From the NCBI GenBank assembly GCA_043741255.1, contig JAYUAP010000094.1, positions 1 through 48,705 of the forward strand: a stretch of DNA of 48,705 nt, read 5' to 3'. The notes beneath the pieces were generated by a model. It made no database searches and was not told where the DNA came from. It worked only from the letters and a program-made list of their open reading frames with translations. The stretch comes from Candidatus Saccharimonadota bacterium (GTDB lineage Bacteria > Patescibacteriota > Saccharimonadia > Saccharimonadales > 2-12-FULL-41-12). Made by a program: the position numbers and the translations under genes. Positions 22,221 to 30,753 of the stretch are shown here, piece after piece; positions within the stretch are counted from its first letter, which is position 1, and every line of letters starts with the position of its first letter.

Positions 22221-24164
22221 CTACAGCCCAAAACCTCTCTCAAATAAAGGCTTAGTGCCATCTCGCGTACTACCATTCGCATTTGTAGGTACTTGTTGCA
22301 TGTTCAATGGCCATGTTATGGGTAGTCTAGCTTTGAATTGACTAAGTCCAAATAAAACATCAGCAACACCGCCGCCTTCACTACCGGGGAGCCAGGCAGC
22401 TACTACCGCATCCCAGGACGATATCTGATCAGTAATAATAAGTGGTCGTCCAGATAGAATAATCACAATAACCTTTTCAGACGATTTTTTTAGATTTTCT
22501 ATTGCCTGAATATCCTTTGTATCTATACTTGGATTCGCATTGTCTCCCCAACCTTCTGCGTATGGTTTCTCGCTGACAACAGCAATACCTACATCGGCTT
22601 TTTTATTATCAAGCTTAAAATTACCATCTATTTCGTAGTTAATCTGAACACCATCGCTCACTACCTGTCGTATACCTTGCAGAATCGATGTTCCTCCTGG
22701 CATCCAATTTCCATCTACACCTTGCCATTCGACGGTCCACGCACCACATTGTCTACCCACATTATCGGCACCGCTACCCGACACAAGAATTTGGTCAGTA
22801 TTTTCTGGTAACGGCAGTAGAGAGTTTTCATTTTTTAGTAACACTGCAGACGAAGCTACAATTTTACGGGCAAGTTTGTGGTGTTTTTCAGAACCTACAG
22901 TATCCAGACTAATATTGTTCAAGGATACATCAAATAAGCCAGCTTTAAATTTTTGATACAGAATACGACTGACCGCATCATCGATTCGTGCCTGACTAAT
23001 TTCGTCATTGTTTACAGCCTTACGCACGTCACCCAGGAATGTTTTGTAGTCGTATGGCAGCATGGCCATATCCAGGCCCGCATTTATAGTTTTTACATTT
23101 GCTTTATACTTGCTTGTCTTGGAGTATTCATAAACCCCATACCAATCCGAAACAACAAAACCCTTAAAACCTAATTCGGTTTTCAGCTTATCGGTTACCA
23201 AATATTTGCTATCAATAATACGTTCATCGCCCCATTGGTTCAGACCTATCAATACAGAGGCAACGTCTGCTTCAATAACTTTTTTGTATGGCGGAAGGTA
23301 CTCGTTTATTAGTGCTTGGTTATCGGCTTTAGTTTTTCCTTGGTCAATTTTGAATTTTTTATGATTTGATTTTCCCCATTCCATGGCACCAGTAGCCAGA
23401 TAATGCTTTGCCGATGCAAGTACGTACGTTTTGTCGTCGAGAGATGCCTGAGTACCTGCAACATATGCTCTTCCCAGTTCGCCATTTAGAGTAGGATTAT
23501 CAGAAAAAGCCTCGTAAACTCTACCCCAGCGCATGTCTTTAGGCGCATCAAGTGAAGGTGAGTAATTCCAATTTATTCCGGTCGCCTTCAACTCTTCGCT
23601 TGTAGCAATTGCTACCTCATTTACTAGCTTAGTATCTTGGGTTGCGCCCAATCCTATGGCGTGTGGGAAAACCGTTGCTCCCAATACATTAGAATGGCCG
23701 TGATTAGCATCAGTTCCGTACAGAATCGGTATCCCAAGCCTTGATTTCAGCGCTTGATCCTTCATGCCATTAACCATATCCTTCCAGCCTTGTGCCGTAT
23801 TAGTCTTTGGTTTGGCGCCGGCACCGCTCAGCACACCACCTAAGTAGTATTTGCTAATGTCGTCCACCTTTCTAAGGCTATTCTTATCGACCAAAGCCAT
23901 TTGACCAATTTTTTCCTCTAAAGTCATACGAGACACCAAGTCTCGCACCCTGATTTCTATGGGTTGGTCTACTTGCCTGTACAGAGCATCTGCAGGCGGT
24001 GGCGGTAATTGTATCCCCAAATCCTCCGGTTGAAGCAAGTAAGTAACAAAACTAACAATTGAGACCACAAATATAACAAAAACAATCCAGCGGTTACGAT
24101 GGGTATTAATTTTGTTTAAAATAGTTTTTTTATCTTTACGGTGAGTTTTTTTTCGATTAGCCAT
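22221..24164 (-). CDS. glycoside hydrolase family 3 (BglX-like beta-glucosidase/exo-glycosidase), membrane-anchored
   Basis: GH3 N- and C-terminal domains, with the nucleophile context GFVVSDW. I prefer the MANRKK start at 24164, which lies 7 nt downstream of TGcTATAAT (24172-24180 on the minus strand). The N-terminus has a basic stretch followed by a TM anchor. Confidence 0.9.
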   Translation of the reverse strand: MANRKKTHRKDKKTILNKINTHRNRWIVFVIFVVSIVSFVTYLLQPEDLGIQLPPPPADALYRQVDQPIEIRVRDLVSRMTLEEKIGQMALVDKNSLRKVDDISKYYLGGVLSGAGAKPKTNTAQGWKDMVNGMKDQALKSRLGIPILYGTDANHGHSNVLGATVFPHAIGLGATQDTKLVNEVAIATSEELKATGINWNYSPSLDAPKDMRWGRVYEAFSDNPTLNGELGRAYVAGTQASLDDKTYVLASAKHYLATGAMEWGKSNHKKFKIDQGKTKADNQALINEYLPPYKKVIEADVASVLIGLNQWGDERIIDSKYLVTDKLKTELGFKGFVVSDWYGVYEYSKTSKYKANVKTINAGLDMAMLPYDYKTFLGDVRKAVNNDEISQARIDDAVSRILYQKFKAGLFDVSLNNISLDTVGSEKHHKLARKIVASSAVLLKNENSLLPLPENTDQILVSGSGADNVGRQCGAWTVEWQGVDGNWMPGGTSILQGIRQVVSDGVQINYEIDGNFKLDNKKADVGIAVVSEKPYAEGWGDNANPSIDTKDIQAIENLKKSSEKVIVIILSGRPLIITDQISSWDAVVAAWLPGSEGGGVADVLFGLSQFKARLPITWPLNMQQVPTNANGSTRDGTKPLFERGFGL

Positions 24165-24182
24165 TAGTATAATTATAGCAAA

Positions 24183-24210
24183 AAAACACCTTAAAACGGA
24201 GGTGTTTAAC
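24183..24210 (-). terminator. rho-independent terminator (minus strand) between module A and the GH3 promoter
   Basis: On the minus strand: AACACCT-CCGTTTTA-AGGTGTT followed by TTTTTG. Confidence 0.45.
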
Positions 24211-24219
24211 ATAAGCTTA

Positions 24220-24362
24220 TTGGAGGGCCAGGAGGGACTCGCCTCACAGCCAAGAAATATACTTTTGCTAATGCGACCTCAACTCACTTTGTTCGTTCTG
24301 AGGCAAGGTGCGGGGACTGCAGACTTGCAGTCCCGTTCGAGTCCCGACTAATCTTCAGCCAA
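24220..24362. repeat. tRNA-3'-end-derived imperfect palindromic module A
   Basis: The left arm TTGGAGGGCCAGGAGGGACTCG is the reverse complement of a T-arm/acceptor/CCA-like end. Central hairpin GGGACTGC-AGACTT-GCAGTCCC at 24313-24334. The right arm contains the T-loop-like GTTCGAGTC. An A-run, an imperfect hairpin and a T-run follow at 24363-24398. Confidence 0.6.
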
Positions 24363-24398
24363 GAAAAAAAGCACTATCTTTACAGACAGAGCCTTTTT

Positions 24399-24432
24399 AT
24401 TGGAGGGACGTATGTATCGCTGTTACAACTGA
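24399..24432 (+). repeat. conserved ~31-nt block (TGGAGGGACGTATGT...CAACTRA), copy 1
   Basis: TTGGAGGGACGTATGTATCGCTGTTACAACTGA, compared with 26535-26566 ATGGAGGGACGTATGTTTGGTTGTTGCAACTAA. It can be read as GGAGGG + 5 nt + a 6-codon ORF (MYRCYN / MFGCCN). Confidence 0.5.
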
Positions 24433-24529
24433 ATTATTGGATCACCCTAGACCGTTTGTGACCGTATTATCAACTAATTAATATAGGCTCCAAACGAGCA
24501 TGGAAGTAGACATGGTTACATTTTATAAC

Positions 24530-24580
24530 GCTTATGGTTACATAATGTATCTGTTAAGGAAGGCTTATGGTTACATAATG
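24530..24580 (+). promoter_or_regulatory. direct repeats (putative operator) overlapping the Fic promoter
   Basis: GCTTATGGTTACATAATG occurs at 24530-24547 and 24563-24580, with a partial third copy ATGGTTACAT at 24512-24521. The repeats start 22 and 33 nt apart. The second full repeat covers the -35 position of the TGgTACAAT (24591-24599) extended -10, which lies 6 nt upstream of the Fic ATG. Confidence 0.55.
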
Positions 24581-24605
24581 AAACTTGAGATGGTACAATT
24601 GAGAC

Positions 24606-25754
24606 ATGTTATCCATACCTGAACCATCGTTTAAATCTAGTCTAACAGATCTTATAGTTGAACTCGAAGGGCTCCGCAATAAAGACGTCACTGGGACAGC
24701 TAAGCCTTGGGTTTTCTTCGAACTTAAGAACCTCTTCCATATTGTCGAGGCATTGAGCTCTGCCCGTATCGAAGGTAACCACACTACTCTGGCTGACTTT
24801 GTTGATTCTCAGCTGAGTTTAAATTTACAGAACGAAGAGTTGGTAGAGATTAGCAACATAATTAAGGCTTTGGACTTTATTGATAAACACATTGCTGATC
24901 ACAAGATCGATAAGGCTTTCATCCTTGAACTACATAAAATAGTCGTAAATAGCTTAAGCCCCAACAAAGAAGGCGACAAAAGATCCGGTGCATATCGTAA
25001 CGAACCACGTAAAATAGCCAACTCATCACATGTATTGCCTCAACCGAGCGATATTAACGACCTAATGAATGAACTAATCCAGTTTATTGACGCAAAAAAC
25101 GAGCCGAAACATGACCTACTTAAAGTAGCTATAGCTCACCATAGGTTTGTATGGATTCATCCGTTTGGCAATGGTAATGGTCGTGTCGTTCGTCTGCTCA
25201 CGTACGCCATGCTGCGCAAACAGGGTTTCATAACTACAGGACTCACTCGATTATTCAACCCTGCGGCGGTATTCTCGGGTGACCGTCAGAAGTATTACGA
25301 TATGCTCGAAGAAGCCGATAAAGGTTCTAATGAAAATATCCTTACGTGGTCTGAGTATGTACTTTCAGGACTTAAGGATGAGGTTAAAAAATCACAAAAA
25401 CTTGCTGATGCCGGATTCGTACGTAATGAAATACTTATGCCGACACTTGATTGGGCACTTGAAAAGAATGTTTTGAGCGAACTAGAGGTACAAGTGTTAC
25501 GACGAGTAATCCGAAAGGAGTCTGTTAAAGCCGCTGATGTTCGCGACCTATGGCCTGAAAATCGTTCACACGTTGTGGTATCAAAGTTCTTTAGCAAACT
25601 CCGTAAGCAAAACTTTATCCGCCCACTGAAGGAAAATGGCCGAGAGTATGTACTGTGCTTTACTGGCAATAAGCTGACGCGTGGTATTCTGGAGCAAATG
25701 GAAAAGCAGGGCATGTTGCCGATCCAAGTCGATGAACTAGCGAACAAGAAATAG
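24606..25754 (+). CDS. Fic family protein (AMPylase-type), with N-terminal auto-inhibitory motif and C-terminal wHTH-like extension
   Basis: Fic active-site motif HPFGNGNGRVVR. A Fic_N-type SxxxEG inhibitory motif (SARIEG) lies in the same polypeptide. Confidence 0.9.
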   Translation: MLSIPEPSFKSSLTDLIVELEGLRNKDVTGTAKPWVFFELKNLFHIVEALSSARIEGNHTTLADFVDSQLSLNLQNEELVEISNIIKALDFIDKHIADHKIDKAFILELHKIVVNSLSPNKEGDKRSGAYRNEPRKIANSSHVLPQPSDINDLMNELIQFIDAKNEPKHDLLKVAIAHHRFVWIHPFGNGNGRVVRLLTYAMLRKQGFITTGLTRLFNPAAVFSGDRQKYYDMLEEADKGSNENILTWSEYVLSGLKDEVKKSQKLADAGFVRNEILMPTLDWALEKNVLSELEVQVLRRVIRKESVKAADVRDLWPENRSHVVVSKFFSKLRKQNFIRPLKENGREYVLCFTGNKLTRGILEQMEKQGMLPIQVDELANKK

Positions 25755-25911
25755 AGTATAGCTTACCTGAAATACTTTGTGAAACTCAAGTATTAGCCAA
25801 TTATATAAAAAACATAGGCAGTTTACCCCTGTTTTAAGCATAAGCATCTTGGAGGAGCAAGGTGCAAACTATTGCAACTAGACTGCTGGAAAAGCCTTTT
25901 ATAGCTTCTAC

Positions 25912-26259
25912 CTAAGTTCTAGTGAATTTTTCATCCGCTTCTTTTACCAGCTCTTTAATCTCAGACCATTTTTTGCGTACTTCTTCTTCGCTTCCAGCAG
26001 CATGGTGGTCTGGCAATTCTAAAGTGCCAAACTCTCCACCAATTTGGTCAAGTAAATCATCTTGCTCAAGGTTTTTATATTTAAGCCATGCACCTGCTAT
26101 GTGATATGCAATGCCTTGTCGCTTATCCCAGTCAGTATCAATTAATTCCGTTGCCAGTAAGCATAAATTTACAAATTCTCTCTCGGAAATAGATTCTTTT
26201 GCAAAAAGAGCTTTTGAGCGTTCTTCAAACTCGGGCGGTACTGAAAAATCTTCTTTCAT
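25912..26259 (-). CDS. hypothetical acidic protein (115 aa), convergent with Fic
   Basis: ORF preceded on the minus strand by the terminator-like hairpin AGAGCC-GTCAAT-GGCTCT-TTTTT (26274-26297). No motif. Confidence 0.45.
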   Translation of the reverse strand: MKEDFSVPPEFEERSKALFAKESISEREFVNLCLLATELIDTDWDKRQGIAYHIAGAWLKYKNLEQDDLLDQIGGEFGTLELPDHHAAGSEEEVRKKWSEIKELVKEADEKFTRT

Positions 26260-26337
26260 AAAATAATCATATCAAAAAAGAGCCATTGACGGCTCTTAGG
26301 TTCAGACTTTCCCACTAGGGTCATCTGTAAGGTCAAA

Positions 26338-26501
26338 TTGGAGGGTCCAGTGGGACTCGGTCACCTTTGGCGACCCCCGAACTTCTGCCATGCAAACAAG
26401 TTTGCAGGTGAAGATTCGTTTCCGAACTGCCACAGGCAGTTCTCACCCACGACACCCTCTTGGTGTGTCGTGGCTTCAAGCCTTACTGAGAACTTGCCAT
26501 G
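26338..26501. repeat. tRNA-3'-end-derived imperfect palindromic module B
   Basis: Left arm TTGGAGGGTCCAGTGGGACTCGG. Hairpins at 26391-26406, 26424-26442 (GAACTGCC-ACA-GGCAGTTC) and 26446-26472. The right arm contains GGCTTCAAGCC...ACTGAGAAC. Confidence 0.6.
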
Positions 26502-26532
26502 AAAAAAGCCGACCGCAAGGGTCGGCACTTTT
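26502..26532. terminator. bidirectional rho-independent terminator
   Basis: AAAAAA-GCCGACC-GCAAG-GGTCGGC-ACTTTT. On the minus strand it follows the 26588-26944 gene. Confidence 0.7.
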
Positions 26533-26534
26533 CA

Positions 26535-26566
26535 TGGAGGGACGTATGTTTGGTTGTTGCAACTAA
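26535..26566 (+). repeat. conserved ~31-nt block, copy 2
   Basis: See 24399-24432. A more degenerate third copy, TTGGAGGAGC...TTGCAACTAG, lies at 25849-25881. Confidence 0.5.
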
Positions 26567-26587
26567 GTCATTAAGAACGCACGAAAA

Positions 26588-26944
26588 CTATCTAGTAATC
26601 TTCTTGCTTTGAGTAATCGCAATTAGAAATGTAAAGATTATGATGCCTATTGTAAATGCAGTCATTAGTTGTCTCGCGGTGTTATCGAAGTCAGTGACTT
26701 CTCTTACACAATGATCAGCACAATCAATATGTCCCAGAATAGATCCAAACCACAAGAGAGCCGTTGAAATCCATGATAAGACTACGAGAAAGTAAGCAAC
26801 TACACTTATTTTTAGTTTATTGAAGAAAATTACCAAAGAAACGGTAGTGAGTAGGGGTGCAAAAATAGGGCTTATATTACTAATTGTAACCAAGGATATA
26901 ATGATTGATAGTACTAACCATGCAAAAGAAAGACGCTTGTTCAT
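26588..26944 (-). CDS. integral membrane protein (hypothetical, 3-4 TM)
   Basis: 118-aa hydrophobic ORF containing a CADHC motif. No family recognised. Confidence 0.5.
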   Translation of the reverse strand: MNKRLSFAWLVLSIIISLVTISNISPIFAPLLTTVSLVIFFNKLKISVVAYFLVVLSWISTALLWFGSILGHIDCADHCVREVTDFDNTARQLMTAFTIGIIIFTFLIAITQSKKITR

Positions 26945-27009
26945 TGGTTATGACATACTTTTACACATAATTCTATTTAATAGTAACATGAAGGAGAAGC
27001 ATAAGTGTA

Positions 27010-27142
27010 TTGGAGGGCTCAGCGAGGCTCGTCATATCTACTCTCACTTCAGCTAAAGCTGCGTTCGAGGACAAGCAAGGAAAACTCAATTGCCATAGGC
27101 AATTTTCAACTGTCGTTCGATTCTCACTGAGCAACGACCAAT
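27010..27142. repeat. tRNA-3'-end-derived imperfect palindromic module C
   Basis: 27009-27031 is 21/23 identical to the tRNA-Lys 3' end at 27172-27194. Central hairpin AATTGCC-ATA-GGCAATT at 27088-27104. The right arm GTCGTTCGATTCTCACTGAGCAACGACCAAT is an inverted, T-loop-containing tRNA-end-like sequence. Confidence 0.65.
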
Positions 27143-27144
27143 TC

Positions 27145-27166
27145 AAAAAGTCCCACAAGGGGACTT
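27145..27166 (-). terminator. rho-independent terminator after tRNA-Lys
   Basis: On the minus strand: AAGTCCC-CTTGT-GGGACTT followed by TTTTGAATT, starting 8 nt after the encoded CCA. Confidence 0.65.
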
Positions 27167-27173
27167 CATGAAT

Positions 27174-27249
27174 TGGAGGGCCCACCGAGGCTCGAACTCG
27201 GGACACGCGGCTTAAAAGGCCGCTGCTCTACCAACTGAGCTATGGGCCC
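27174..27249 (-). tRNA. tRNA-Lys (anticodon UUU), CCA encoded
   Basis: Reverse complement GGGCCCATAGCTCAGTTGGTAGAGCAGCGGCCTTTTAAGCCGCGTGTCCCGAGTTCGAGCCTCGGTGGGCCCTCCA. It folds as a 7-bp acceptor stem, a D arm GCTC/GAGC, an anticodon stem GCGGC/GCCGC with loop CTTTTAA, and a T arm CCGAG-TTCGAGC-CTCGG. Total length 76 nt. Confidence 0.95.
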
Positions 27250-27361
27250 GCATTTAGCGGGAACCTATCGGTTATTTTCATTTTAACAGATTAAATTTGC
27301 TAAAATCAACTAATGATATTATACATGCTTTATGGCAAAAGTCAATCTGTTGACCCTTAGT

Positions 27362-30009: not shown

Positions 30010-30753
30010 ATGAGTAAAGAAATAGACCCCCGAAGTGGGTCAATCGTACCATACTTAACTATTCCAAAGTTTATTGTTAACTATTTGGATGAAGTAAAGG
30101 TTGAAGGCGAATTTAAGGAAAATCCCAAAATTCTCCAGAATGATTATTTGCGTCTTTGCAATATTAATCCTGATAATCCTGAGCAAGAAGAGCATTATGC
30201 CAATGGCGATAGCGTAACGGGCTCTATATTGGAAACAATTCGGACCAAAAATGTTAACGAATCGACGGACATAGCTCGTGATAGTTATTTTAAAAGCGAA
30301 ACTTATAAAAGTGGTGGTTCAAGGAAGCTGATTAATGGCGTTGGGCGTATAGCCAATATGGCTTTTATGAAAAATGCTTTGTTTATTAGTTCAGCGGTAG
30401 AGCTTAACAGGCATGTAACCGAGTCCCCAGAACCGAAAAAGCTCAAAGAATCAGATAAAAGTTCGATTCTAATACACGCCAAGGCAAAGAGTGAATGCTA
30501 TTTAAGATACAAAAACTCAAATGAATTTTTGTTCCAGGCTTTAAAGTTTCATGGCAGGGCTGAAGCTGGCGCATTGGCTGGAGTTTTGCATGGTCCAGAA
30601 TATCCAAAGACCAGTCGTCAGTTGTTGCAAGACCAAATAGAATTCCGAAGCGTTCTTGACAAAAATTTCGCACTTTCTGCATATGTTTTATTCCGTTCTG
30701 CAGAATTAAAATATAATCCAAGTTTTTTGCCAGATTTTCCACCTTCAGAGTAA
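30010..30753 (+). CDS. hypothetical protein (247 aa) inserted between ruvC and ruvA
   Basis: Long clean ORF starting 9 nt after ruvC. No motif recognised. Confidence 0.5.
   Translation: MSKEIDPRSGSIVPYLTIPKFIVNYLDEVKVEGEFKENPKILQNDYLRLCNINPDNPEQEEHYANGDSVTGSILETIRTKNVNESTDIARDSYFKSETYKSGGSRKLINGVGRIANMAFMKNALFISSAVELNRHVTESPEPKKLKESDKSSILIHAKAKSECYLRYKNSNEFLFQALKFHGRAEAGALAGVLHGPEYPKTSRQLLQDQIEFRSVLDKNFALSAYVLFRSAELKYNPSFLPDFPPSE

Follow-up and report, generated by a model that had tools for sequence, protein, structure and literature searches.

An array of modules behind tRNA-Lys

The window, i.e. the whole stretch of 48,705 nucleotides (nt) that was analysed, comes from a Candidatus Saccharimonadota bacterium of the order Saccharimonadales (assembly GCA_043741255.1, contig JAYUAP010000094.1). 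It contains an array of three palindrome-like modules, A, B and C, behind an intact tRNA-Lys(UUU) gene, and module B (26338-26501, minus strand) is the subject of this work. We found that module B is the canonical unit of a repeat family whose 88-nt core is a selected folded nucleic acid, lodged in the T-loop of a spare tRNA 3' copy. Below, G-numbers denote the genomes, L-numbers the loci and C-numbers after a G-number the contigs that were compared.

Read in the direction of the tRNA, i.e. on the minus strand of the window, the array extends over ~3 kb. Its anchor is the tRNA gene (27174-27249; ARAGORN; Rfam tRNA, 69.2 bits), which lies behind a promoter-like TTGACT-16-TATAAT (27345-27318, promoter scan) and ends ...CCCTCCA. 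There follow a terminator hairpin (GTCCC-CTTGT-GGGAC and T5; 27143-27173, from reading the sequence), module C (27010-27142), which ends ...CTGAGCCCTCCA, and a cassette for a 118-amino-acid (aa) protein, which ends ...ACGTCCCTCCA. Next come a strong terminator (GCCGACC-CTTGC-GGTCGGC and T6; 26502-26534, terminator scan), module B, ending ...CTGGACCCTCCA, and a second cassette, with a 115-aa orphan and a Fic protein, that again ends ...ACGTCCCTCCA. A degenerate terminator with 7 of 9 stem pairs and T7 (24363-24400, from reading the sequence) then precedes module A (24220-24362), ending ...CTGGCCCTCCA, and the array closes with a final terminator (24184-24207, terminator scan) and a GH3 gene (Pfam), all of these terminators and modules being on the minus strand. 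The ATAAGCTTATGTTAAAC...hairpin at the array end is homologous to the array end of G145 (L074). Within the 3 kb there are six plus-strand copies of TGGAGGG, compared with a chance expectation of 3.2 for both strands of the full 48.7-kb window.

The original prediction had described a common layout for the three modules, and its parts are all present. At its lowest coordinate each module starts with a reverse-complemented tRNA 3' end (A, 24220, ATTGGAGGGCCAGGAGGGACTCG; B, 26338, ATTGGAGGGTCCAGTGGGACTCG; C, 27010, ATTGGAGGGCTCAGCGAGGCTCG). Each has a central hairpin (A, GGGACTGCA/TGCAGTCCC; B, GAACTGCC-ACA-GGCAGTTC at 26424-26442; C, AATTGCC-ATA-GGCAATT at 27088-27104) and an opposite arm with a T-loop-like motif, and the terminator scan recovered terminators made of an A-run, a hairpin and a T-run. 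ARAGORN found no transfer-messenger RNA (tmRNA) or tRNA-like gene among the modules, and no tmRNA in the window's own genome.

The core of module B belongs to an order-restricted family

We built one covariance model from module B and two relatives (R1), against which module B scores 181.7 bits, and one from the 88-nt core (R2). A joint MAFFT alignment of 12 modules of all types was too messy (43% identity), and the modules were therefore split by type. The covariance-model search found the homologues that the original prediction had anticipated: R1 matched 182 of 301 Saccharimonadales genomes, at 100-180 bits, and ~40% of the order was without a match. R2 gave 0 matches in ~239 other Patescibacteria genomes, drawn from other classes and orders. 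A pattern scan of 185,579 species genomes returned almost only Saccharibacteria/Saccharimonadales records, plus a chance-level handful of others. A phage origin was considered and dropped, as the two pattern matches in IMG/VR were due to chance, with neither an R2 match nor a tRNA, and there was no true match in IMG/VR.

When the whole window was compared with Rfam 15, only the tRNA reached threshold; with E values up to 10, the region 24100-27300 gave just two chance-level matches, RUF2 and SorX, and no group I or group II match. Literature searches found no description of the element. The core family is, on solid evidence, restricted to the order and undescribed in searchable databases and literature.

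The core is a selected fold of the tRNA-sense strand

The fold that we tested consists of three helices, H1, H2 and H3, with 8, 17 and 6 pairs i.e. 31 pairs. When 49 distinct cores were aligned by MAFFT without structural information, 97.0% of the cells were paired, compared with 71.9% in shuffles, and 28 of the 31 pairs varied on both sides. The covariation score was 0.656 versus 0.188 in shuffled alignments, with none of 500 shuffles reaching the observed value, and slid partners gave at most 0.108. The compensatory change from C-G to T-A that had been noted between the central hairpins of B and C is real, and in the same alignment all 8 pairs of that hairpin vary on both sides. Among 166 distinct cores collected by nhmmer, 96.5% of 5100 pair cells were paired. 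The unpaired junctions (UGAG; CGCAAGG or GGAAAC; GGG) are conserved as well, and the ends of the core (UGAG.../...GUGAC) are not inverted repeats. With homologues by the hundred and very strong covariation, structure is kept while sequence drifts, as the original prediction had proposed, and the core is therefore a selected folded nucleic acid.

A single pair of H3 reads G·T in 153 of the 166 cores, and outside that pair GT+TG combinations number 90 against 48 AC+CA mismatches (p = 4e-4). The near-invariant G·U pair in H3 and the excess of wobble pairs over A·C mismatches indicate that the tRNA-sense strand is the folded one. Module B is a full member of the R2 family, with H1, H2, H3 and the H3 G·U pair; it scores 97.8 bits on the minus strand (model positions 1-88) and 11.3 bits on the plus strand. 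Folding single sequences of both strands did not separate them, the energies being uninformative in this respect (z of -2.8 versus -4.1 for the B core).

The core replaces a T-loop nucleotide in a spare tRNA end

In the direction of the tRNA, the intact tRNA is followed by the unit, which opens with a terminator and a diverged inverted copy of the tRNA 3' part that has TGG, opposite CCA, first. After a short loop there are a direct copy of the variable region and the 5' strand of the T-stem as far as T54, the 88-nt core, and a direct copy from C56 to CCA. The core takes the place of T-loop nucleotide 55 in this spare copy, and one nucleotide is lost. In module B these parts are an inverted arm (~26476-26501), a P1 hairpin derived from the variable/T-stem copy (26446-26475), the core (26358-26445; H1 26424-26442, H2 ~26379-26421, H3 26360-26375) and the direct copy CGAGTCCCACTGGACCCTCCA (26339-26359), so that it reads ...GGGTGTCGTGGGT, core, CGAGTCCCACTGGACCCTCCA, all on the minus strand. 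Loss of a nucleotide is not universal, since module C retains both Ts of the T-loop.

Thirty-one modules that adjoin a tRNA were compared with it: identity is 95% for the direct 3' copy and 84% for the 12 nt preceding the core. Divergence is greater in the inverted arm, with identities of 70% for the variable region and T-stem 5' strand, 75% for the T-loop, 67% for the T-stem 3' strand, 44% for the acceptor and 73% for NCCA. A retroviral-type primer-binding site was rejected, as complementarity of the inverted arm is lowest precisely at the acceptor end (44%).

The imperfect palindrome of the original prediction consists of two nested symmetries, one around the terminator loop and one around the small loop before the direct copy. 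It appears as a palindrome because the spare tRNA copy comes after the inverted copy, which is diverged and centred on the terminator. Around the terminator at 27143-27173 as centre, the 3' end of the tRNA and the inverted arm of module C are symmetrical (CCAATTCATGAAG...CTTTTTGAATTGG), relatives having a like layout, and the terminator at 26502-26534 is framed by a CCATG...CATGG symmetry. The conserved element is the insert at T-loop position 55 and not the tRNA-like ends. These had been taken for part of a folded element; the ends are indeed there, but they are not intrinsic to it and are copies of the adjoining tRNA, of 17 isotypes.

At tRNA-Lys loci of the genus that have no module (L010, L011 and L009; G006, G005 and G001), the symmetry of the terminator reaches CCA...TGG, e.g. 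CCAGAATAAGCACCTAC...GTAGGTTTTTATTTTGG. These terminators at module-free loci are the starting structure that a snap-back extension would need.

Units lie beside tRNA genes of 17 isotypes, and the arms of A and B are foreign

A tRNA lies no more than 400 nt from 113 of the 152 distinct full-length cores, and every one of the 113 is co-oriented with it, 76 downstream and 37 upstream, at tRNAs of 17 isotypes. In the complete genome G096, for example, copies adjoin Lys, Pro, Arg, Leu, Val, Gln, Ser, Met and Gly tRNAs and the arms copy each tRNA. In relatives within the order there is often, behind tRNA-Lys, a terminator and then a module of 130-190 nt whose last 19-22 nt exactly repeat the 3' end of the genome's own tRNA; the corresponding direct repeats in the window measure 7-23 nt. 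The arm of module B, CGAGTCCCACTGGACCCTCCA, is the tRNA-Lys(UUU) end of G059, G047 and G096, with 6 mismatches to the resident gene, and that of module A, CGAGTCCCTCCTGGCCCTCCA (24221-24241, minus strand), is identical to the tRNA-Lys(CUU)-type end of G096. Since these arms match tRNA-Lys ends of other genomes, A and B were imported together with their arms rather than duplicated locally. The arm of module C, CGAGCCTCGCTGAGCCCTCCA (27011-27031, minus strand), best fits the resident tRNA-Lys, with 2 mismatches.

Upstream copies sit in tRNA fragments that contain the 5' part. In L112 (G003:C4, 4960-5540), a 190-nt tandem unit occurs three times before an intact tRNA-Arg(UCU), one unit containing a run of N; the unit comprises the tRNA-Arg promoter, nt 1-54 of tRNA-Arg with an altered D-loop, the core and CGAGTCC. 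L077 (G047:C2, 6632-6792) holds a full-length tRNA-Lys(UUU) copy with the core in its T-loop, 3.4 kb downstream of an intact tRNA-Lys and module, and the cargo between the two consists of a response regulator, a membrane protein, a histidine kinase and an acetyltransferase-like open reading frame (ORF). A second R2 copy of the window's own genome (C1:8967-9054, 56 bits) has no tRNA beside it. Its core lies between AAAAAGTCTCCAGAGGG and TTGGCAC, and the intact hairpin GAGTCTCCAGAGGGGGTGGGCACCGCTGGAGACTC follows immediately, a layout that places the core inside a partial copy of a terminator-like hairpin loop.

Copies are gained, exchanged and amplified

Within the window's genus the numbers of R2 copies are 0, 2, 2, 2, 9, 13 and 36. 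At the tRNA-Arg(UCU) locus, G003 has a type-2 unit and three upstream units, and G004 has a type-1 unit, another terminator and no upstream units, which indicates that the whole unit, including the terminator, was exchanged. Modules also occur in tandem and as near-identical pairs around cargo. Genes for a two-component system, for CsoR with a copper ATPase, for a LexA-like protein and for a kinase are among this cargo. Some copies are nested, truncated or mosaic. The mean identity of cores was 0.655, 0.663 and 0.666 in three comparisons i.e. similarity follows neither genome nor tRNA, and core lineages specific to a tRNA or to a genome were not seen in these comparisons. Nearest-neighbour cores share the flanking tRNA in 18 of 121 cases, against 7.8 by chance.

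At five loci of G096 (L063, L067, L069, L072 and L073), a short GC-rich palindromic repeat, CCTGCCTGCCGGCAGGCAGG or a variant of it, recurs next to or within modules and pieces of pseudo-tRNA. Small AT-rich hairpins have likewise entered H3 of some cores, which makes these copies compound or nested.

Modules C and A, and sister core types

The original prediction had treated A, B and C as copies of one element. They do share a layout, but only B is canonical. Module C (inverted arm ~27105-27142, first hairpin 27088-27104) scores 10.2 bits against R2, from 'UGA + first hairpin' alone, and by its sequence is a member of a sister repeat family ('type 3') that shares the first hairpin. The signature of this family is the first hairpin followed by the 16-mer TTTTCCTTGCTTGGCC, inside a tRNA-end copy; in module C the 16-mer is TTTTCCTTGCTTGTCC (27069-27084, minus strand). 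The 16-mer pattern occurs in 142 of the 301 genomes, with 6-8 exact copies in some, compared with ~0-1 for a reversed-pattern control. In copies aligned by eye, the same nesting recurs at other tRNAs, a tmRNA-like 3' end and an anticodon-arm fragment. The tmRNA-like case is L096 (G275:C43, ~1350-1650), where a type-3 unit follows the 3' end ...GCCAGCTCCACCA and closes with the exact repeat TACCCGCCAGCTCCACCA, and which suggests that the elements also use ssrA-like ends.

Module A has no significant match to R2 (3.4 bits, hairpin only). It consists of an inverted arm with GTTCGAGTCCC, the hairpin GGGACTGCA-AGTC-TGCAGTCCC, a second weak hairpin and the direct copy, with a degenerate core, and we classify it from these features as a degenerate relative that keeps arms and hairpin and has no recognisable core.

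A third, shorter core type (GGGTTCGGTCAT...GCGCAG-hairpin-CGAG...GTGCGTTG or ...ATGTGCGTTG) occupies the same niche, after G57 of a tRNA-end copy. It occurs in L008 (G002), L029, L015, L016, L012 and L004, and at the G004 tRNA-Arg locus in L124. Its apical hairpin of 4-5 base pairs covaries by eye (GAAAC/GTTTC, GGAAT/ATTCC, GGAGT/ACTCC, GGAGC/GCTCC and GAAGC/GCTTC).

Cassettes between the modules

Islet 1 (26542-27009, minus strand) holds a membrane-like 118-aa orphan ORF (26588-26944) with no Pfam match, and its conserved right end, ...TTAGTTGCAACAACCAAACATACGT + CCCTCCA, lies at 26535-26575 on the minus strand. Islet 2 (24408-26337) encodes the Fic protein (24606-25754, plus strand; Pfam Fic, 73.5 bits) and the acidic 115-aa orphan (25912-26259, minus strand); its left end is ATTTGACCTTACAGATGACCC... 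and its right end is at 24401-24440. In general, left ends read ATAnnCTTATG... or ATTTGACCTTACAGATGACCC..., right ends read ...TTAGTTGCAAYAGC...ACG(G)T + CCCTCCA, and the islets are bounded by 7-10-nt CCCTCCA repeats. The two right ends (24399-24440 and 26533-26575) had earlier been read as a Shine-Dalgarno sequence with a mini-ORF. They are instead homologous islet ends, alike over ~40 nt (TGGAGGGACGTATGT.T.G.TGTT.CAACT.A) and matched in G145 (L074). The left end of islet 2 is homologous to the sequence directly after tRNA-Lys in G016 (L028), where there is no module.

The islets look like integrase-less cassettes that target a CCCTCCA end, whether it belongs to a real tRNA or to a module copy, and such targeting would explain the alternation of modules and cassettes without an integron. 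A search for integron features found no RYYYAAC/GTTRRRY boxes at the module ends and no intI, attI or Pc; the module ends are TTGG.../...CCAA and come from the CCA end of the tRNA.

Search for a mobilising protein

Reverse transcriptase (PF00078) is absent from G002, G003 and G005, which have 13, 36 and 9 copies respectively, and retro-mobility was rejected because the enzyme is missing where copies are most numerous. The window's own genome, with 2 copies, has 8 RVT_1 hits, long frames on the short contigs C40, C45, C47, C53, C107, C114 and C166, and its congeners have none; the hits are probably group II introns. TnpB (PF07282) is absent from all 15 genomes tested, a search that did not extend to IscB/Cas9, and the idea of an omega-RNA with the core as scaffold and the 21-nt tRNA end as guide was rejected for this reason.

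Nearly every genome, including G003, G096 and G270, has one conserved Xer-like tyrosine recombinase gene (PF00589, ~310 aa). As there is just one such gene per genome in nearly all, a dedicated integrase was rejected. No recombinase lies within the window array, and no element-encoded integrase was found there or in five other arrays. The sole exception is G039 (C2:103817-104745), where a module and a second gene for a tyrosine recombinase are ~300 nt apart; the same tRNA-Lys end may here serve a genuine island with an integrase of its own.

IS200-type Y1 genes (PF01797) are present in 14 of 21 genomes with at least 7 copies versus 5 of 20 with at most 2, and absent from the window's own genome and from the copy-rich G096, G012, G016, G034, G039, G067 and G148. 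The Y1 genes carry flanking palindromes of their own (xxAAGGAC-N-GTCCTTxx), which are unlike the core hairpins. R2 gave weak matches close to two Y1 genes, but these proved to be an ordinary tRNA-Glu locus and a hairpin that matched by coincidence. The Y1 association is a weak lead.

In two congeners, at L135 (G001:C3) and L116 (G003:C11), a Y1 gene with perfect palindromes (e.g. GCGTCAAGGTC-N-GACCTTGACGC) lies between ruvC and ruvA. The window has a 247-aa orphan with no Pfam match at this place (30010-30753); a hidden Y1 gene was rejected there, as the protein has no similarity to Y1 proteins.

A non-autonomous folded element and its alternatives

Several results are solid ground for an interpretation: family membership, the fold and its strand, the position in a T-loop copy, the tRNA-specific arms, the copy dynamics, the foreign arms of A and B, and the lack of reverse transcriptase, TnpB and a dedicated integrase. 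Our preferred reading, which we hold with middling confidence, is that the module is a unit of small non-coding repeat families confined to Saccharimonadales, and a folded non-autonomous element whose units turn over by recombination at tRNA-end repeats. The selected part would be the core, acting as a folded single strand of tRNA polarity. The active strand would be either RNA, transcribed by read-through or from duplicated promoters of tRNA genes, or DNA of the same strand in its single-stranded state. The unit encodes no protein and would behave as a non-autonomous element, with units gained, lost, tandemly amplified and swapped between species by recombination at the direct tRNA 3'-end copies. 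Snap-back or template switching at the terminator hairpin would best account for the inverted arm, and the extra CCCTCCA ends of the modules would then serve as secondary attachment sites for the Fic and 118-aa cassettes. Recombination and template switching as the mechanism, and RNA or single-stranded DNA (ssDNA) as the active form, are steps that we infer.

Several observations weigh against this reading. Detection favours intact copies. Neither an excision or integration intermediate nor an empty and filled pair with identical flanks was seen, so that recombination at the tRNA-end repeats is a proposal and not an observed event, and repeats of 21 nt would be short for recombination of the RecA type. 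The reading does not account for tRNA-specific arms at 17 isotypes, nor for copies in fragments of D- or anticodon loops and in the non-tRNA hairpin at C1:8967-9054. If no machinery recognises the fold, its strict retention at ~66% sequence identity argues for a host function or a further protein. Abundant sense RNA is not to be expected from B, which lies behind a strong terminator.

The strongest rivals are a host RNA and a folded ssDNA site that depends on Xer. In the first, unlikely but to be taken seriously, the core, closed by the T-stem copy, is a structured non-coding RNA (ncRNA) made from tRNA operons to the benefit of the host, with the arms as part of its function; it might serve in tRNA processing or quality control, act as a decoy for tRNA-binding factors, or be a ribozyme. 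The very strong covariation, the conserved unpaired junctions (UGAG, CGCAAGG, GGG) and the near-invariant G·U pair fit this well, as do the constant tRNA sense, the tRNA promoter on each upstream copy of G003, the 96.5% pairing among copies at saturating divergence, and the fact that no transposase tracks the element. However, a beneficial RNA would not be expected to range from 0 to 36 copies within a genus and to lack a match in ~40% of the order's genomes, nor to occur as tandem, nested, truncated and mosaic copies; downstream copies also lie behind strong terminators, core types replace each other at one locus, and no Rfam family matches.

In the second rival, which we consider improbable, the inverted and direct arms form a stem that mimics the T-arm duplex of the tRNA, much as in attC or the CTX phage site, and the housekeeping Xer or another enzyme inserts units and cassettes. 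The original prediction had drawn the attC analogy, and it holds for the strand-specific fold and for cassettes between units but fails for the R and L boxes and intI, which are absent. Such a site would also fit the arms, which form a palindrome resembling the target, with the core as a bulge where the T-loop lies. It would fit, too, that several genomes have cassettes lodged between the modules of their arrays, and that nearly every genome has exactly one conserved tyrosine recombinase. Against it, the ends have nothing like R or L boxes and the acceptor part of the stem is only 44% complementary. Most units, at many different tRNAs, are without a cassette, the cassettes have conserved ends of their own and occur without a module, and nothing indicates Xer action away from dif.

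We give little credence to ordinary attachment (att) scars, i.e. attR-type remnants of islands that an integrase had placed in tRNA genes, at the T-loop or the 3' end; the core would then be the arm-type region of attP. Such remnants would account for the 19-22-nt tRNA 3'-end direct repeats around units, the arms of A and B from foreign tRNA-Lys genes, the G039 module beside an integrase gene and the islets in the window. They would not account for one core family that serves 17 tRNA isotypes, for up to 36 copies in a 1.1-Mb genome with a single Xer-like recombinase, for upstream copies and the one in a non-tRNA hairpin, or for compensatory base-pair changes, which are not expected of protein arm sites.

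Still less credible is self-insertion at the RNA level, in which the core RNA enters exposed loops of tRNA transcripts by ribozyme or ligase chemistry, reverse transcription fixes the product and snap-back complementary DNA yields the inverted arm starting with TGG. It would fit insertion in loops with one or two nucleotides lost, a polarity that is always sense, and an inverted arm that starts exactly opposite CCA, after the T-run of the terminator; yet reverse transcriptase is absent from the most copy-rich genomes G003, G002 and G005, the tandem units include untranscribed promoter DNA, and module C keeps both Ts of the T-loop.

Functionless decay of duplicated tRNA-Lys downstream sequence, the null of the original prediction with neither homologues nor covariation, agrees with the degenerate state of A and the strong divergence of the inverted arms but deserves almost no belief, since there are hundreds of homologues with compensatory changes and the resident tRNA is not the source of the arms of A and B; it is excluded for B and contradicted for C, and possible for A alone.

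A bolder reading, which we offer tentatively and regard as unlikely, is that the core and its sister cores are a new class of protein-less mobile structured nucleic acid. Such elements would enter stable hairpins at their loops (those of terminators, and the T-, D- and anticodon loops of tRNA genes), copy part of the target, leave the interrupted spare beside the intact gene and turn tRNA 3' flanks of Saccharibacteria into recombination landing pads for cassettes. The fold itself would be active, e.g. as a small ribozyme that cleaves or ligates, or by hijacking a host enzyme of universal occurrence, such as the single Xer, or replication restart.

Significance and comparison with known systems

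Saccharibacteria are reduced episymbionts with genomes of ~0.6-1.6 Mb and few recognisable mobile elements; the window's own genome has 0.88 Mb. Present in ~60% of the order's genomes, in as many as dozens of copies and under tight structural selection, the repeat family makes up a substantial part of them that has gone unannotated. The family explains the pseudo-tRNA fragments, tandem repeats and small cassettes at the tRNA flanks of Saccharibacteria, and these units should not be annotated as tRNA pseudogenes or att scars. A fold that was catalytic, or that recruited a host enzyme, would give DNA or RNA a new means of moving without a protein of its own; if it were a host RNA, it would found a new class of tRNA-linked ncRNA. 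Either way, the R1 and R2 models make the question directly testable in cultivable strains.

Repetitive extragenic palindromes (REPs and REPINs) with their RAYT (REP-associated tyrosine transposase) proteins and the palindrome-associated transposable elements (PATEs) of IS200/IS605 resemble the family in being short, abundant, protein-less repeats whose hairpins are kept by compensatory change, in strand-specific folding of a single strand, and in large copy-number gaps between close relatives. The modest enrichment of Y1 genes in copy-rich genomes is a further likeness to REP-RAYT and PATE. However, seven copy-rich genomes and the window's own genome have no Y1, the palindromes flanking Y1 are unrelated to the core hairpins, and, unlike REPs, the element sits in the loop of a partial copy of a neighbouring gene, with direct and inverted arms derived from the target. 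Miniature inverted-repeat transposable elements (MITEs) differ in that the core has no terminal inverted repeats, the flanks are long copies of the target and one nucleotide is lost, not duplicated.

The attC sites of integrons and the attP(+) hairpin of CTX phage, used by XerCD, are likewise imperfect palindromes that work as one folded strand, with structure kept and sequence free, a folded stem that mimics a duplex target and cassettes separated by sites. The present units differ in having no RYYYAAC/GTTRRRY boxes and no intI, attI or Pc, in being mostly without a cassette, in arms that copy the adjacent tRNA, and in that the conserved part is a branch of three hairpins and not the stem.

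Quasipalindromes made by template switching and duplication-triplication/inverted-duplication (DUP-TRP/INV-DUP) rearrangements offer a parallel to the direct-inverted-direct arrangement of the tRNA 3' part around a short hairpin, here the terminator. Those are sporadic mutations, whereas the unit is recurrent, inherited and exchanged and has a conserved insert.

Archaeal tRNA introns, which Fujishima and colleagues reportedly described in 2010 as transposing among tRNA genes, are related short structured inserts in loops, including the T-loop, of many tRNA genes within one order. The present inserts are bacterial; no bulge-helix-bulge motif was seen, none having been searched for, and the hosts are almost always truncated tRNA copies. 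Those of the window are the 3' third of the tRNA only, and the lone full-length interrupted tRNA-Lys (L077) has an intact twin. Rickettsia palindromic elements (RPEs) are also small, selfish-looking palindromic repeats inside genes, including RNA genes, of reduced genomes, but they interrupt a functional gene, whereas here the interrupted copy is a spare fragment beside an intact one.

Islands and prophages, which Williams is said to have placed in 2002 at a T-loop or 3'-end sublocation of tRNA genes, differ in scale and reach, as the modules are ~200 bp long, carry no genes and lie on both sides of tRNAs of 17 isotypes in genomes with one Xer-like recombinase. In common with tRNA-integrated islands, they have a direct repeat of the tRNA 3' end, a regenerated intact tRNA, a displaced distal fragment and tandem accretion, and the two islets of the window fit that model as integrase-less elements resembling cis-mobilizable elements (CIMEs).

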